A stretch of DNA of 64,000 bases from Candidatus Saccharimonadales bacterium. Its GTDB lineage: Bacteria; Patescibacteriota; Saccharimonadia; Saccharimonadales; 2-12-FULL-41-12. The notes below the pieces were generated by a model that did no database searches, was not told the DNA's origin, and was given only the letters and a program-made list of their open reading frames with translations. The stretch spans positions 448,387 through 512,386 of the forward strand of contig JBFIJM010000001.1 in the NCBI GenBank assembly GCA_041600715.1, given 5' to 3'. Shown piece by piece: positions 10,911-46,094 of the stretch. How positions within the stretch are numbered: the stretch's first letter is position 1; each line of letters begins with the position of its first letter. The translations under genes were made by a program, and so were the position numbers.

Positions 10911-11313
10911 GGGGCTGACTTTAAGCTCGACATTGAACCTTTACAGATAAATCCGCGTGTCGCTTGTCCAGCGTTATAGGACAAACCCTTTAAATGCAAC
11001 ATTTAAAGACGCACGTGCAGCAGTAGCTAACCTCTTTGAGCGCAGTAACTTTGCATTTGCAACAGCCTAAGTTAATTCTTAGTGCCACCTACTACTACGA
11101 CACCAGATAGAAGTAGCAGGTGTTATATCATCTGGTTGCTGTAAGTCCCGTATGTTTTCCGGAATTTACCTAAGACTTTGAAAACTGCTGATTCTGTATT
11201 TTTGTTTGTTTACCGTATAGGGTCAAAAGAAATTTCAAGCAAACTACGCACGTAGAATATTTATCAATGTATAGTCGATGGACGCGGAGGGCAGTGCTCC
11301 GCCAGCTCCACCA
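10911..11313 (+). ncRNA. ssrA: tmRNA (transfer-messenger RNA)
   Basis: 5' GGGGCTGACTTTAAGCTCGAC and 3' GGACGCGGAG-GGCAGTG-CTCCGCCAGCTCCACCA, giving an acceptor stem with the G3:U pair and encoded CCA. Internal tag frame ends ...ANLFERSNFAFATA-TAA (stop 11068-11070). Flanked by a promoter and a terminator. Confidence 0.9.
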
Positions 11314-22968: not shown

Positions 22969-23043
22969 GGCCTCATCGTCTAACGGTTAGGACACCAGGT
23001 TTTCATCCTGGCAATCGGGGTTCGATTCCCCGTGAGGTCACCA
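22969..23043 (+). tRNA. tRNA-Glu (anticodon TTC), CCA encoded
   Basis: Manual cloverleaf: GGCCTCA/TGAGGTC acceptor, anticodon stem CCAGG/CCTGG with loop TTTTCAT, T arm CGGGG-TTCGATT-CCCCG. Confidence 0.9.
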
Positions 23044-23079
23044 ATCTAAAAACCCCAGCTTCGTCTGGGGTTTTTAGAT
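23044..23079 (+). terminator. Hairpin terminator directly after tRNA-Glu
   Basis: ATCTAAAAACCCCA / TGGGGTTTTTAGAT 14-bp arms with 8-nt loop; A/T tracts on both sides. Confidence 0.8.
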
Positions 23080-23080
23080 T

Positions 23081-23206
23081 GGCAGGCTCACTCGAGCCAG
23101 CCCGAAACCCGCAGTGGTTCGTTCATGACGATCACGCACAGGAGTTTACTCCGAGCATGTGAGGGGAAATGGTTGTCGCTAAGCGACAACGGATTCCGTG
23201 AGGTCA
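23081..23206 (+). other. tRNA-Glu-linked structured insert ending in a degenerate copy of the tRNA 3' end
   Basis: Ends with GATTCCGTGAGGTCA (23192-23206), against tRNA GATTCCCCGTGAGGTCA (23024-23040). Contains hairpins at 23032-23062 and GTTGTCGC-taa-GCGACAAC (23172-23190). Confidence 0.45.
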
Positions 23207-23357
23207 ATAAAATATTCCCAGCAAAAAAGACCTTTTGTAAGGATTTATTATTTTTTCTGATTATTTTTTAGTTTCTAGAGCGGTCAGTCATGCTCGTACA
23301 ACTAGCGTTATCCTAGCATATTTACTACATTTTTGCTAGTGGTTATGCACAGCTTTC

Positions 23358-37658: not shown

Positions 37659-37735
37659 GGGCCAGTAGCTCAGCTGGTTAGAGCACCTGCCTCTTAAGCA
37701 GGGTGTCGAGGGTTCGAGTCCCTCCTGGCCCTCCA
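37659..37735 (+). tRNA. tRNA-Lys (anticodon CTT), CCA encoded
   Basis: Manual cloverleaf: GGGCCAG/CTGGCCC acceptor, anticodon loop CTCTTAA, T arm GAGGG-TTCGAGT-CCCTC. Confidence 0.9.
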
Positions 37736-37739
37736 CGCA

Positions 37740-37767
37740 AGAACCGTCCTTCTGGGCGGTTTTTTCG
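37740..37767 (+). terminator. Hairpin + T-run terminator directly after tRNA-Lys (proximal)
   Basis: AACCGTCC-ttct-GGGCGGTT followed by TTTTT. Confidence 0.7.
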
Positions 37768-37904
37768 TGATTGATCTTTGGGGTCACGAATTCATGACAC
37801 GCCAAAGGGTGGAGAGGGTGAGGATTGCCTGTGGCAATCTGCAAGGGAGACAACTCTTGCAAACTGGTTTGCAGAGATGTTGCGACGGGGTCGCAGAATG
37901 TGAC

Positions 37905-37925
37905 CGAGTCCCTCCTGGCCCTCCA
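37905..37925 (+). repeat. Second copy of the tRNA-Lys 3' end (21/21 identical to 37715-37735)
   Basis: Direct reading of both copies. Confidence 0.95.
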
Positions 37926-37963
37926 AACTAAAATACCCTACCTTGCCGTAGGGTATTTTAGTT
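37926..37963. terminator. Second (distal) hairpin terminator following the duplicated tRNA-Lys end
   Basis: AAACTAAAATACCCTAC-cttgcc-GTAGGGTATTTTAGTTT, 17-bp arms. Confidence 0.75.
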
Positions 37964-38063
37964 TGGTGTTTTGGGCGGACTCAAACCTGAGACTTGGATT
38001 TTCTTCAGAAAATACAGTTATCGAGCGGTTCGGTCGACAAAGTCGTGCGCTTGCCCCTCCTTG
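37964..38063 (+). other. Second, older-looking tRNA-linked insert (related to the one after tRNA-Arg-TCT)
   Basis: Shares GGTTCGGTCGACAAAGTC (38027-38044, 16/18 with 43867-43884) and GTGCGCTTGCCCCTCC (38045-38060) with the 43.9-kb insert. Ends in a degenerate T-arm/acceptor-like CCCCTCCTTGG. Confidence 0.35.
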
Positions 38064-38100
38064 GGTGTTTTTAATCTAGATCCACAGCAATTAAATTAGA

Positions 38101-42013: not shown

Positions 42014-43540
42014 GTGATCATGACCAACACAAACGAAAAAATAGGACAGTTAATTTATCAGATCAGGCAAGAGCGTGGTTTTACACAAGCTGAGTTTGCA
42101 AGAAGACTTGGCACCAGTCAATCAGCCGTAAACCGTATCGAAAAAGGTCGACAGAACCTCAGTCTAGAGACATTAGGTAGAATTAGCGACGTACTCAATA
42201 AGCAGATCATTAGCCTCGGTGGAGGTGCGGTAAACCTAAGGATAGAAGGCGGACATGAACTCAAAGGGAGCATAGAAACTAAGGTTTCTAAAAATGCTGC
42301 GGTTTGTTTGTTATTCGCTGCGCTTCTAAACAAAGGCACCACAAGACTTAAGCGTATGCCGAGAATAGAAGAAGTAAACCGACTTATAGAAGTACTGACA
42401 AGCATAGGAGTAAAAGTCCGATGGATGGCTAATAACGACTTAGAGATTCGACCACCAGAAGTCCTGCTACTCGACAAGATGGATAAAACCGCTGCCCGAA
42501 AAACACGTAGTGTGATCATGATGCTAGGTCCTCTAATGCATCTGTTTGATGAGTTCAAAATCCCCTATGCAGGGGGGTGTAAACTTGGGAGCAGGACTGT
42601 TCAGCCACATCTCTTCGCTCTTGAAGAATTTGGAGTTAACATTACTGCTAAGACCGGTCATTATCATGTTGTCGCCAAACACAAAATTCCTGAAACAATA
42701 ATATTATACGAATCTGGCGATACAACCACAGAGAACGTCATCATGGCAGCATCCCGCGTAGACGGAGAGGTAACAATTAAGATGGCTAGTGCTAATTATA
42801 TGGTTCAGGATCTCTGTTATTTCTTAAAAAAACTTGGCGTTAAGATTTCAGGAATAGGCACCAGTACTCTTGTTATTCGTGGCGTAAAAAATATTCGAAA
42901 GAACGTTACTTATCATCCATCTGAAGACCCAATAGAGTCAATGACATTTATAGCAGCAGCGGTTACTACAAACTCCAGTATTACAGTTAAGCGTGCACCG
43001 ATAGAGTTTGTGGAGTTAGAACTTTTAAAACTTAAAAAAATGGGTCTTTCTTTTGATGTCAGCCCTCATTACAAGGCTAACAATGGGTACACAGACCTTG
43101 CCGATATTACTATCCATAAACATGACGGTAAACTTACAGCTTTAGAGGAAAAAATTTATGCTCGTCCATTCCCTGGCCTAAACATCGACAATCTACCGTA
43201 TTTCGTGCCGATTTCTGCAGTAGCGAAAGGTCGCACTCTTATACACGACTGGGTGTATGAAGAAAGAGCACTTTATTATACCGAGATGCGCAAACTTGGA
43301 GTGAATGTCACGCTAGCTGATCCTCATAGAGCTTACATAGATGGGCCAACAAAATGGAGCGTTGCAGACGTAGTATGCCCTCCCGCCCTTCGTCCAGCGG
43401 TCCTACTGCTCATTGGTATGCTAGCAGCACCTGGTACTTCTATCCTACGTAATGTCTATTCTATCAATCGTGGATACGAGGATCTTGCCGAAAGACTAAA
43501 TCAAATCGGTGCTCAGATAGAAATTATCAACGATCTATAA
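42014..43540 (+). CDS. murA: XRE-type HTH domain fused to UDP-N-acetylglucosamine 1-carboxyvinyltransferase
   Basis: Residues ~8-65 are HTH_3-like (IRQERGFTQAEFARRLGTSQSAVNRIEKGRQNLSLETL). The remainder is MurA-like (SKNAAV Lys motif, catalytic Cys in PYAGGCKLGSRTVQPHL, two-lobed EPSP-synthase-fold length). Confidence 0.8.
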   Translation: MIMTNTNEKIGQLIYQIRQERGFTQAEFARRLGTSQSAVNRIEKGRQNLSLETLGRISDVLNKQIISLGGGAVNLRIEGGHELKGSIETKVSKNAAVCLLFAALLNKGTTRLKRMPRIEEVNRLIEVLTSIGVKVRWMANNDLEIRPPEVLLLDKMDKTAARKTRSVIMMLGPLMHLFDEFKIPYAGGCKLGSRTVQPHLFALEEFGVNITAKTGHYHVVAKHKIPETIILYESGDTTTENVIMAASRVDGEVTIKMASANYMVQDLCYFLKKLGVKISGIGTSTLVIRGVKNIRKNVTYHPSEDPIESMTFIAAAVTTNSSITVKRAPIEFVELELLKLKKMGLSFDVSPHYKANNGYTDLADITIHKHDGKLTALEEKIYARPFPGLNIDNLPYFVPISAVAKGRTLIHDWVYEERALYYTEMRKLGVNVTLADPHRAYIDGPTKWSVADVVCPPALRPAVLLLIGMLAAPGTSILRNVYSINRGYEDLAERLNQIGAQIEIINDL

Positions 43541-43576
43541 ATAGAGGTCACCATCTGTTATAATTTGCGTTAGTCT

Positions 43577-43651
43577 GCGGGATTCGTATAACGGCTAATA
43601 TATAAGTTTTCCAAACTTAGGACGGGGGTTCGATTCCCCCATCCCGCACCA
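43577..43651 (+). tRNA. tRNA-Gly (anticodon TCC), CCA encoded
   Basis: GCGGGAT/ATCCCGC acceptor, anticodon loop TTTCCAA, T arm GGGGG-TTCGATT-CCCCC. Extended -10 TGTTATAAT at 43556-43564. Confidence 0.88.
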
Positions 43652-43721
43652 CAATCATTTATCAAACCGCATTTCACATTATATAAATGAAAAATGTTGA
43701 CTGTTAAATGAACGCTTGTGT

Positions 43722-43798
43722 GCCCCGGTAGCTCAGTGGATTAGAGCAATGGGCTTCTATCCCACAGGTCGGGGGTTCGAGTCCCTCCCGGGGTACCA
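43722..43798 (+). tRNA. tRNA-Arg (anticodon TCT), CCA encoded
   Basis: GCCCCGG/CCGGGGT acceptor (G1-U72), anticodon loop CTTCTAT, T arm GGGGG-TTCGAGT-CCCTC. Confidence 0.88.
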
Positions 43799-43835
43799 AA
43801 ATAAAACACCTATTATTTGATAGGTGTTTTATTTT
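43799..43835. terminator. Hairpin terminator directly after tRNA-Arg-TCT
   Basis: AAAATAAAACACCTAT-tatttg-ATAGGTGTTTTATTTT. Confidence 0.8.
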
Positions 43836-43937
43836 GACAGCTAGCTGAAGCGGGCATCGAACCACAGGTTCGGTCGCCCAAGTCACGCACAAGAATGAAT
43901 TCCGAGCATGACTGCAGGCGTGCGCTACCCCTCCCGA
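43836..43937 (+). other. tRNA-Arg-TCT-linked structured insert, related to those after tRNA-Glu and tRNA-Lys
   Basis: Contains TCACGCACAAGAATGAATTCCGAGCATGAC (43883-43912, ~80% identical to 23032-23061) and blocks shared with 38027-38060. Ends in CCCTCCCG (43930-43937), matching the tRNA T-arm/acceptor junction 43783-43790. Confidence 0.4.
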
Positions 43938-43986
43938 TTGATCATCACCCACTCTACGCCTCCTTAGATCTTATTTATTACAGTAG

Positions 43987-44015
43987 TTGCTATAGACGTA
44001 ACTTTACGCTATAAT
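43987..44015 (+). promoter_or_regulatory. Sigma70-type promoter upstream of tRNA-His
   Basis: TTGCTA (43987-43992), 17-nt spacer, TATAAT (44010-44015). Confidence 0.55.
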
Positions 44016-44052
44016 CACCCCTGTTTTACTGACCATTTCAGTACAAATATTT

Positions 44053-44130
44053 GGTGGCTATAGCTCAGTTGGTTAGAGCGCCGGGTTGTGGTTCCGGAGG
44101 TCGTGGGTTCAATTCCCATTAGCCACCCCA
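44053..44130 (+). tRNA. tRNA-His (anticodon GTG) with genomically encoded G-1, CCA encoded
   Basis: G-1 (44053) opposite discriminator C73; GTGGCTA/TAGCCAC acceptor; anticodon loop TTGTGGT; T arm GTGGG-TTCAATT-CCCAT. Confidence 0.9.
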
Positions 44131-44140
44131 TTCAAGAGAA

Positions 44141-44163
44141 GTCAAGAGTTGCTTGGCTTTTTT
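44141..44163 (+). terminator. Terminator after tRNA-His
   Basis: GTCAAG-agtt-CTTGGC hairpin followed by T6. Abuts the convergent gene end. Confidence 0.55.
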
Positions 44164-44800
44164 AAATTACGCTTAATAAAATAATTACAGCTACCGGGAC
44201 TGTGATATTGTCCGAACCAAACCATGAAATATTTTCGAGCAGTGTAAGTATTAACGGAAACATTACTAGTAAAGTAAGTAAGTTTGGCCTGTTCTCTGGT
44301 GCAACAAAGTACAACGCGCCCGCAAAAATAGCCATAGATGTATAGAAAAATGTCATTGACCCGAGTAGGGTTTTACCGTGGCTGAGTAACATGTAACGGG
44401 TTCTCTTACCCCATTTGAGCCCAACGATTGCTGCCAGTGCATCTGCAATCGCGAGATGCAATATGGATGCTGTAAAGATCCAGGGAGCTGGCTCAAGTAA
44501 TGCGCATATGCCAATACCGATCGGATACAGTACTTCGCCTCTCGTAATACGATTAACGTCGTGTATAGAGCTAAATATATTGAGTTTATAAGATGCTAGT
44601 ATGACCACTAAAAAGCCAACGCTGAGTAGCTGTATATAAGTCCATGATAAAAAAAATGGGCAAAACGCCACAATCACGCCTGTCCCCATATGTATTAGTT
44701 TACGACTGAGTTCAACTTGCACTATTTTACGGCGCCACAAGATCTCTGCGAACATAATAAGAAATAGTATGCATAGACATACAAGTATTAATTCAATCAT
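44162..44800 (-). CDS. Polyprenol/dolichol/phytol-kinase-like CTP-dependent membrane kinase family protein
   Basis: 212 aa, about 6 [10 protein letters not shown] and [18 protein letters not shown] motifs typical of the DGK1/SEC59/VTE5 and CdsA-like family. Confidence 0.55.
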
Positions 44801-45797: not shown

Positions 45798-45816
45798 TTA
45801 TTTGGAGACTTATTTA

Positions 45817-45845
45817 AAATACCCGGGGTAAACCTGGGTATTTTT
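45817..45845 (-). terminator. Distal hairpin terminator following the duplicated tRNA-Pro end
   Basis: AAAATACCCGG-ggtaaa-CCTGGGTATTTT (plus-strand reading), symmetric A/T tracts. Confidence 0.7.
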
Positions 45846-45849
45846 AATA

Positions 45850-45865
45850 GTCGGGGTGAAAGGAC
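45850..45865 (-). repeat. Second copy of the tRNA-Pro 3' end (16/16 identical to 46021-46036)
   Basis: GTCGGGGTGAAAGGAC read directly at both positions. Similarity continues imperfectly into the flanks. Confidence 0.95.
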
Positions 45866-46020
45866 ATTGCACTTTGTGCTCCTCCGCTCAATCGTGCTCA
45901 ATGCAAGCTTTTGCGCGCGATTTCGCTACGCCAAACCTTCCGTTCGCTTTGCTCACTCATCAGGTTATTGTCACTTCGGAAAAATTAATATAGCCTAGCA
46001 AAGCTAAGCTATATTAATTG
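45850..46020 (-). mobile_element. 171-bp insert between tRNA-Pro and its distal terminator, bounded by duplicated tRNA 3' end
   Basis: Same architecture as at tRNA-Lys: tRNA, proximal terminator (45978-46018), ~110-nt GC-richer hairpin-rich segment, repeat, distal terminator. No ORF. Confidence 0.35.
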
Positions 46021-46094
46021 GTCGGGGTGAAAGGACTCAAACCTTCGACCTCTCGGTCCCAAACCGAGCGCGCTATCAACTGCGCCACACCCCG
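46019..46094 (-). tRNA. tRNA-Pro (anticodon TGG), CCA encoded
   Basis: CGGGGTG/CACCCCG acceptor, anticodon loop TTTGGGA, T arm GAAGG-TTTGAGT-CCTTT. Confidence 0.9.

Follow-up and report, generated by a model that had tools for sequence, protein, structure and literature searches.

Integrative elements that target tRNA genes are said to be bounded by attachment repeats (attL and attR) and to cross over in the T-loop, a grouping reportedly made in the classification of Williams in 2002. Folded single-stranded recombination sites are represented by CTXphi attP(+), which is used by XerCD, and by integron attC. Saccharibacteria and other bacteria of the candidate phyla radiation (CPR) have tiny genomes with few recognised mobile elements. 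Here, a 64,000-nt stretch of a Candidatus Saccharimonadales bacterium (contig JBFIJM010000001.1, positions 448,387–512,386; hereafter the window) was analysed for structured cassettes located directly behind tRNA genes. The DNA downstream of every tRNA gene in the window was read. Non-coding cassettes of 130–190 nt (n = 5) were found 3' of 4 of the 7 tRNA genes, namely tRNA-Glu, tRNA-Lys (two in tandem), tRNA-Arg(TCT) and, on the minus strand, tRNA-Pro.

Parts are given in the order in which they occur on the tRNA strand. The tRNA with its encoded CCA is followed by a hairpin (T1) that is perfectly palindromic and terminator-like; next come an inverted, degenerate copy of the 3' part of the same tRNA (positions ~76 to 44/52) and a loop of 3–4 nt. 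A short direct (left) copy of tRNA positions ~44/52 to 57 (T-stem 5' strand plus TTCG) then precedes a structured module, and the module is followed by a right direct copy of positions ~56/61 to 76 (3' strands of T-stem and acceptor). A T1-type hairpin was present after the tRNA in every cassette, and its palindrome usually continues without interruption from CCA to the mirrored TGG and on into the inverted copy. The right copy often reaches ACCA, as it usually does in related genomes, and is frequently followed by a second terminator; several cassettes are flanked on both sides by bidirectional terminators. In minimum free energy (MFE) folds, the unit is closed by pairing of TGG with CCA. In 30 cassettes, alignment of the inverted copy with a perfect inverted copy of the local tRNA gave 499 matches and 123 mismatches over 622 positions. 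All three tRNA-derived segments match the local tRNA in every case. The left copy of the Pro cassette contains the Pro-specific GAAGGTTTG and is therefore derived from the local tRNA.

The downstream repeat begins in the T-loop and extends as far as the tRNA 3' end. It comprises 16 nt in the Pro cassette and, as an exact copy, 21 nt in the first Lys cassette, where it ends the unit (37905–37925), and is the direct repeat that characterises islands in tRNA genes. The inserts of 130–190 nt contain no open reading frame (ORF), so that the integrase and cargo of a classical island are lacking.

At least three types of module (A, B and C, plus variants) were distinguished. Type A is a single irregular hairpin of the form GT-P1-AAA-P2-CGCRCAG-P3-CGAGCA-P2'-TGCA-P1'-TGCRCTA. 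If read as a helix, its internal loop has two mismatches, R.A and a conserved C.A, plus a bulged A. The hairpin is a real structure whose pairs are kept by compensatory changes beyond chance. Among 32 distinct type-A hairpins, which had been pre-filtered for partial complementarity, 97.2% of cells were paired and 9 of 11 pairs had double-sided changes, a result that was reached in 0 of 500 shuffles. For 10 short-form copies, 94.7% of cells were paired and double changes occurred in 12 of 15 pairs (0 of 500 shuffles); all slid controls collapsed. In an unfiltered metagenome set of at least 99 distinct hairpins, the outer P3 pairs were Watson-Crick in 322 of 385 instances, and P3 was hypervariable. 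The initial annotation had described a compensatory hairpin change between the Arg and Glu inserts. The change is real and far beyond chance, but its description as a single G:C to A:T pair was an understatement, as all three helices covary.

The first Lys cassette, with its type-B module, can be aligned to type-B cassettes that follow tRNA-Arg and tRNA-His in other species; of the 42 predicted pairs, 16 are compensatory. On the sense strand, the consensus fold of type B is more favourable by 8.4 kcal/mol and has an invariant G-U. Folding of both strands together with counts of G-U versus A-C gave mixed results: structure was assigned to the sense strand for helix I, P1 and type B, and the P2-P3 hairpin favoured neither strand clearly or leaned towards antisense. 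The conserved C.A of the P2-P3 hairpin becomes G.U on the opposite strand, and the type-A hairpin is consequently not strand-decisive. Changes in the inverted copy kept wobble pairing in 41 cases on the tRNA strand versus 19 on the other strand, and 82 of the 123 mismatches disrupt pairing.

Coordinates of the window cassettes and their parts are given in Table 1. The segment on which the initial annotation had commented (43836–43937) is most of one cassette copy, that behind tRNA-Arg(TCT). The left copy of this cassette pairs with 43858–43863 (CGAACC) to form a small hairpin with an ACA loop. Its module has the conserved internal loop CGCRCAR/CGAGCA and the conserved 3' flank TGCGCTA. In the distal Lys cassette, the type-A module is cut down to P1 and an AAA loop (GGTTCGGT CGAC AAA GTCG TGCGCT), which is consistent with deletion of P2-P3 between GTC repeats, and the right copy is decayed (CCCCTCCTTGG).

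Table 1. Positions of the tRNA-linked cassettes and their parts in the window (strand as read; a dot, no strand).
Feature	Position	Strand	Basis
tRNA-Arg(TCT), preceding the segment first commented on	43722–43798	+	ARAGORN; Rfam tRNA match, 65.7 bits
Arg T1, directly 3' of CCA, A-run before, T-run after	43799–43835	.	Sequence reading
Arg inverted copy; reverse complement GGTTCGATGCCCGC..., tRNA GGTTCGAGTCCCTC...	43836–43863	+	Sequence comparison
Arg left copy GGTTCG (T-stem 5' end + TTCG)	43867–43872	+	Sequence reading
Arg type-A module, long irregular hairpin	43873–43927	+	Model R1 match 43867–43929, 75.6 bits, E 2.9e-18; covariation
Arg module, helix P1	43875–43878/43917–43920	+	
Arg module, helix P2	43882–43885/43909–43912	+	
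Arg module, helix P3	43893–43896/43899–43902	+	
Arg right copy CCCCTCCCG (T-stem 3' + acceptor 3' start), truncated	43928–43936	+	CCCTCCCG also in tRNA
tRNA-Glu	22969–23043	+	
Glu cassette	23044–23206	+	R1 match 23116–23173, 32.6 bits, E 6e-6
Glu T1	23044–23079	+	
Glu inverted copy	23080–23110	+	
Glu left copy GTGGTTCG	23114–23121	+	
Glu type-A hairpin	23132–23162	+	
Glu second hairpin	23171–23191	+	
Glu right copy GATTCCGTGAGGTCA	23192–23206	+	
tRNA-Lys	37659–37735	+	
Lys cassette 1, type-B module	37736–37925	+	
Lys cassette 1, T1	37736–37767	+	
Lys cassette 2 (distal)	37926–38064	+	R1 match 38027–38054, 24.3 bits
Lys cassette 2, T2	37926–37963	+	
Lys cassette 2, degenerate inverted copy	37964–38024	+	
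tRNA-Pro	46019–46094	-	
Pro cassette	45850–46018	-	R1 match 45887–45923, 27.1 bits
Pro T1	45984–46018	-	
Pro left copy GAAGGTTTG	45932–45940	-	
Pro long-form type-A module	45866–45931	-	
Pro hairpin	45891–45921	-	
Pro second hairpin	45869–45879	-	
Pro right copy GTCCTTTCACCCCGAC	45850–45865	-	
Pro second terminator	45811–45849	-	

Every sequence block quoted by the initial annotation is present in the window. TCACGCACAAGAATGAATTCCGAGCATGAC lies at 43883–43912, and GGTTCGGTCG.C.AAGTC at 43867–43884 and 38027–38044, as it had stated. The latter pattern matched three times in the window (two exact matches and one chance match with 3 mismatches), a count reached in 0 of 100 window shuffles (mean 0.25). 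CCCTCCCG occurs at 43929–43936 and within the tRNA at 43783–43790, again as reported. The Glu counterpart TCACGCACAGGAGTTTACTCCGAGCATGTGA had been quoted correctly but placed 100 nt too low, at 23032–23062 instead of 23132–23162; the range proposed for its extraction (23081–23206) was right. GTGCGCT..CCCCTCC is indeed common to the Arg and distal Lys cassettes, with coordinates that are shifted by 1 to 43920–43935 and 38045–38059. Related structured elements had been proposed behind at least three tRNAs, and the five cassettes behind four tRNAs bear this out. Newly added are the Pro cassette on the minus strand and the type-B Lys cassette, the finding that both flanks of the module are copies of the local tRNA T-arm/acceptor, and the degenerate inverted copy of the same segment that precedes them. 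As the hairpin of the distal Lys cassette is reduced and its right copy decayed, Arg and distal Lys had been seen to have only the flanks in common. The initial annotation knew of no described element with this architecture, and none was found here. An Rfam 15 gathering scan of the whole window returned tRNAs and transfer-messenger RNA (tmRNA) only, and an E-value scan over the Arg and Lys cassettes gave no match (Glu and Pro were covered by the gathering scan). On these scans, a known RNA family was rejected for the cassettes. Literature searches by topic and by sequence string found no description of such cassettes.

To search related DNA, as had been suggested, covariance model R1 was scanned over 1.02 Mb, consisting of the window and 80 related Saccharimonadia loci (L001–L080), with a cut-off of E < 0.01. 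Additional homologs exist: 16 copies were found, including all four type-A sites of the window. All 16 are located 68–102 nt 3' of a tRNA 3' end or of the copy in a previous cassette, and all are on the tRNA strand. As no match lay outside tRNA 3' ends or their copies, genome-wide dispersal of the REP/REPIN type was not seen. With all module types taken together, 244 tRNAs had sufficient sequence behind them, and 34 of these are followed at 90–230 nt by a repeat of their own 3' end, which extends through CCA in 27 cases. A clean partial T-arm/acceptor copy was observed 62 nt after a tRNA-Gly (L027, 3600–3680); it is preceded by a hairpin, has no module, and may be a module-free precursor or relative of the cassettes.

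A hairpin scan of metagenomes gave matches on at least 120 contigs. Among the matches listed, 12 have the same tRNA-linked architecture. The hairpin thus follows at least 12 further tRNA species, namely Ser (three anticodons), Ala, Gln (two), Asp, Tyr, Met, Gly, Pro and Val. The other ~110 of the matches listed lie in GC-rich DNA without a tRNA, often as nested layers of the same stem-plus-loop unit. Such tRNA-free copies were found near genes for ParA-like proteins, ArdC, orphan DNA methylases, HTH_17 proteins and recombinases, and also on alphaproteobacterial plasmids. Since the hairpin occurs in both settings, it is regarded as a portable module common to plasmid DNA and DNA resembling integrative and conjugative elements (ICEs), of which the tRNA-linked cassette is a specific use. 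Rfam searches of 20 metagenome loci gave no family that matches the hairpin, and no match for the nested GC-rich copies.

Several of the metagenome loci deserve separate description. In L151, L143, L110 and many of L109–L228, the hairpin unit (4-bp stem plus CGCGCA/GAGCA loop) is nested two to three times with a spacing of about one helical turn, which suggests a repeated protein-binding face. In L111, L117, L192 and L227, the hairpin tops a longer conserved stem (...GGAAAGAACGTTC...GAACGTTCTTGTAGGCGCGAG...), which may be a different structured element built round the same module; these contigs also encode tyrosine recombinases. L139 (1183–3800) carries a cassette after tRNA-Ala within a 16S - tRNA-Ile - tRNA-Ala cluster; its 16S match of 1631 nt against a model of 1533 positions hints at an insertion. 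At L120 (7380–7590), a type-A cassette follows a decayed tRNA remnant that was not called by ARAGORN, and its right copy retains a good CCGTCCGGGTGTACCA end. In the window itself, an exact CGAGCATGAC is present on the minus strand (23287–23296) some 80 nt past the end of the Glu cassette. When one mismatch was allowed, this string matched 6 times in the window (2.5 expected; 3 of 100 shuffles reach six), and the exact copy was taken as chance.

Orthologous cassettes are 75–93% identical, compared with 66–86% for the flanking coding DNA. Values were 85% versus ~70% for the Lys cassettes of L016/L028, 83% versus 65–70% for the Arg-TCT cassettes of L016/L022, 81% versus 68–70% for L025/L078 and 93% versus 84–86% for L007/L008. 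Better conservation than in the surrounding genes excludes neutral junk and indicates purifying selection or recent exchange. The cassettes are patchily distributed, and compact Gly-Arg-His tRNA clusters are free of them. Behind tRNA-Lys-CTT the module varies with lineage: it is type A in L014, type B in the window, and of other types in L007/8, L016/28 and L006. In L018 and L025, T1 and the inverted copy are shared (81%) and the modules differ, which indicates module exchange. Decayed copies were seen in the window (Arg right copy, distal Lys cassette) and in L003. In the tandem array behind the window tRNA-Lys, the proximal cassette is intact and the distal one decayed. In L038-His and L197, the terminator after the right copy is almost the same as T1 (38/40 and 34/40) and is followed by a new TTGG.

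Two observations on the surrounding DNA are added here. In compact species among L001–L080, the Arg-His distance in the Gly-Arg(TCT)-His cluster is 22–49 nt. Elsewhere the cluster is inverted or split by up to 4.3 kb with aminotransferase, PEP carboxylase, HAD and NUDIX genes, which marks the tRNA genes as rearrangement hot spots. The Logan contigs L244 and L245 (from the SRR29257392/SRR29257383 set L244–L248), when aligned to the window, were 100% identical. The coordinates place the ends of L245 and L247 at position 48 of tRNA-Lys and tRNA-Arg(TCT), respectively, and that of L248 at position 64 of tRNA-Glu; these ends probably reflect graph branching in conserved tRNA sequence, the alternative being strain heterogeneity at the cassettes.

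We tentatively favour, at somewhat less than an even chance, the view that the cassettes are miniature, non-autonomous, gene-less elements integrated at the T-loop/3' end of tRNA genes. It is based on the att-like nature of the repeat, a uniform size, tandem arrays in which the older copies lie farther out and the patchiness, and further on module exchange, the link of the hairpin to mobile elements and the lack of a promoter in the Arg cassette (43500–44200 was the region scanned). To judge from the sequence, the order of parts is exactly the one that a Campbell-type insertion would leave. Crossing-over would take place between the T-loop of a tRNA gene and a small circle with the order A-T-A'-loop-L-M. 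The tRNA would then be completed by the A segment of the cassette, and the native 3' end would be left as the downstream repeat. Further rounds of insertion, or duplication, would build tandem arrays in which the distance from the tRNA increases with age. In single-stranded form, the element could fold into a rod, with a stem that would mimic the duplex tRNA gene from variable loop to CCA and a module that would branch off at the T-loop. The type-A module would be drawn from a pool of hairpins also used by plasmids and ICE-like elements, and the cassettes, being non-autonomous, would be moved by an enzyme supplied elsewhere. The arms might be templated by the target itself, through fold-back or template switching at both palindrome centres.

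Several results weigh against an integrated miniature element. A regular-expression search for the tyrosine-recombinase signature found none in the window or in L001–L080 (~1 Mb), and Pfam searches of ten window ORFs that flank cassettes gave housekeeping functions or no match, with no recombinase. Two scans of viral contigs revealed no tRNA-linked copy. No near-identical copies were found inside one genome (the L014 modules are ~81% alike), and hence there is no sign of recent bursts. Neither filled-versus-empty alleles nor an excised circle were seen, with exact-protein look-ups that returned the same strain only. The conservation of orthologous cassettes above coding DNA fits selection at the level of the host at least equally well. 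Finally, neither simple cut-and-paste nor an integrase mechanism accounts for inverted and left copies that invariably match the local tRNA.

As the main rival we consider a structured RNA with a function in the host that arises by read-through of the tRNA terminator, i.e. a 3' trailer or tRNA-linked small RNA; we judge it unlikely. Its closing helix (inverted plus right copy) would mimic a sealed acceptor/T-stem minihelix and could serve as a processing signal, a decoy or a regulator of the tRNA. Such an RNA would account for cassettes that are always adjacent to and co-oriented with the tRNA, for covariation in all module helices, for conservation above the neighbouring genes and for MFE folds closed by TGG and CCA. 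The excess of wobble-keeping changes on the tRNA strand (41 versus 19) and the better sense fold of type B with its invariant G-U point the same way. However, a strong terminator palindrome separates tRNA and cassette, and no promoter was found in the Arg region scanned. Presence is patchy and the module type behind one tRNA varies between lineages, distal and some proximal copies are visibly decayed, and two thirds of the inverted-copy mismatches (82/123) break the pairing. Moreover, the type-A hairpin is ambiguous as to strand (C.A becomes G.U on the other), and the same hairpin is found in mobile-element DNA without any tRNA. A further possibility, which we hold to be doubtful, is an unrecognised class of self-complementary 'dumbbell' DNAs of ~150–190 nt, or their RNA equivalents, acting as a gene-free, target-templated element or as a tRNA mimic. 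A dumbbell would use its built-in mimic of the duplex 3' half of the tRNA gene to insert into, or act on, that tRNA. Its arms would be regenerated by fold-back copying of the target, and the branching hairpin would be a portable module that conjugative elements also carry. If true, this would be a protein-gene-free system of integration or tRNA mimicry unlike integrase islands, insertion sequences (IS) and miniature inverted-repeat transposable elements (MITEs), integron cassettes and IMEX elements.

Two other explanations fit fewer facts. An in-place direct-inverted-direct triplication, formed by replication template switching (fold-back) at T1 and a second short palindrome, would require no mobile unit, and modules would be palindromes grown or exchanged locally. 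The palindrome that runs from the tRNA 3' part via T1 into the inverted copy speaks for such an origin, as do a second palindrome centre that can be perfect (e.g. CCGAACCCTAGGGTTCGG in L044), the match of all three tRNA-derived segments to the local tRNA, the near-equality of T2 and T1 in some units, the module-less partial copy behind the L027 tRNA-Gly, and the nested, layered hairpins. We nevertheless regard it as improbable: architecture and spacing are constant, and the same module families with conserved loops and flanks return behind over 15 different tRNA species, in many genomes, as well as in plasmid/ICE-like DNA, which independent local events would not yield. Cassettes could also be decayed scars of classical integrase islands or prophages, with fused P' and P arms left after internal deletion, which appears very unlikely. 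In favour are the direct repeat of the tRNA 3' end from the T-loop onwards, which is the signature of classical att sites, and the presence of the hairpin in mobile-element DNA, in some cases with tyrosine recombinases nearby. Random deletions, however, would not give the same size of 130–190 nt and the same internal order in dozens of independent loci. In ~1 Mb neither an integrase nor a complete island with such ends was seen, and housekeeping genes occupy the larger gaps at these tRNAs. Each tRNA moreover has its own inverted and left copies, and the cassettes are better conserved than coding DNA.

Other candidates were rejected. On the opposite strand, an overlooked tRNA, a tRNA-like gene or an antisense RNA with a terminal CCA was discarded because acceptor pairing is not kept and no cloverleaf forms. 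The reverse complement does contain tRNA-like fragments, but bidirectional terminators leave no room for a promoter of an antisense-strand RNA gene. A bipartite, H/ACA-like antisense guide or a bridge-RNA-like guide directed at the T-loop was dismissed, as both flanks are tRNA-sense, no transposase or guide-ribonucleoprotein gene is nearby and there is no expression signal. For a phage or viral attP site, matches in viral contigs were only chance matches in coding DNA or hairpins of the mobile-element, non-tRNA type. The large inserts at the same tRNAs were considered as full-length parents and turned out to encode the aminotransferase, PEP carboxylase, HAD and NUDIX housekeeping genes mentioned above. 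A tRNA intron (group I or bulge-helix-bulge) does not apply: the full tRNA upstream is uninterrupted, and the interrupted T-arm copy comprises only positions ~44/52 to 76, with no tRNA 5' half. A hammerhead-like CUGAUGAG...GAA in the Pro spacer, present in one copy only and without Rfam support, was taken as chance.

Two further features of the window were recorded. A gene at 42014–43540 (+) encodes a MurA-type enolpyruvyl transferase (EPSP_synthase fold) with an N-terminal HTH_3 DNA-binding domain; the fusion is kept at full length in 80 Saccharibacteria genomes (contigs of metagenome-assembled genomes) with 70–89% identity. The tmRNA gene is located at 10911–11313 (+; Rfam RF00023, 62 bits).

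In this 64-kb window, more than half of the tRNA genes carry cassettes, which annotation pipelines currently show as blank intergenic DNA. If mobile, they would be among the smallest target-specific insertion elements known, and would raise the question of how a gene-less element comes by arms that fit every new target tRNA. Should they be functional RNAs, a novel class of tRNA mimics linked to tRNA genes would be at hand. In both cases, the type-A hairpin is a motif of wide distribution and strong covariation (at least 99 distinct versions) that is absent from Rfam and links CPR chromosomes with intergenic regions of plasmids and ICEs.

Like the integrative elements that target tRNA genes, the cassette follows a tRNA, has a direct repeat from T-loop to 3' end/CCA, supplies a terminator to the tRNA and occurs in tandem arrays. 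In contrast to them, it measures only 130–190 bp, has neither integrase nor cargo, and carries the target once more in inverted form and, in part, a second time in direct form; in type A, a hairpin splits the downstream T-arm copy. With CTXphi attP(+) and attC it shares inverted and direct target copies able to pair into a duplex mimic (499/622 positions; MFE folds) and a structure kept by covariation above sequence, with conserved mismatches, a bulge and a variable hairpin. Here, however, the mimicked target is the 3' half of a tRNA gene instead of dif or attI, the attC R''/R' consensus was not seen by reading, and the whole cassette unit would be a circle of ~150–190 nt. The likeness is one of geometry.

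Repetitive extragenic palindromic elements (REP/BIME/REPIN) and MITE-like elements are likewise short non-coding hairpin repeats at gene 3' ends, with mosaics of alternating orientation and a presumed trans-acting enzyme. The cassettes differ in that, in this lineage, they were found only behind tRNAs (16/16 matches) and that their arms copy the local tRNA, not a genome-wide consensus. Similar to Frpo and ssi, the single-strand promoters and priming signals of conjugative plasmids (PMC11541004), the type-A hairpin is found in intergenic DNA of plasmids and ICE-like elements, in several cases upstream of ArdC, ParA-like or orphan methylase genes. At least 10 such examples upstream of ParA, ArdC or methylase genes were obtained, from a search in one orientation only; in a crude unbiased ORF test, hairpin orientation relative to genes showed no bias (16 versus 15). 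Unlike Frpo and ssi, no -35/-10 pair was recognised in the stems (manual reading of mobile-element copies gave a TTGACC-like box and no -10 at the right spacing), and the comparison is not made on sequence similarity.

Inverted triplications of the origin-dependent inverted-repeat amplification (ODIRA) type (PMC11790251) also present one segment in direct-inverted-direct order with junctions at short palindromes. The corresponding segments of the cassettes are tens of bases long, not kilobases, and recur at many tRNAs with common inserted modules. Finally, as in tRNA mimics such as the tRNA-like domain of tmRNA, Y-like RNAs and mascRNA, the closing helix on the sense strand copies the acceptor/T-stem strand plus NCCA. 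Unlike the tmRNA domain, bacterial Y-like RNAs and mascRNA, the cassette has no D or anticodon domain and no Rfam match, and its CCA would pair with TGG.

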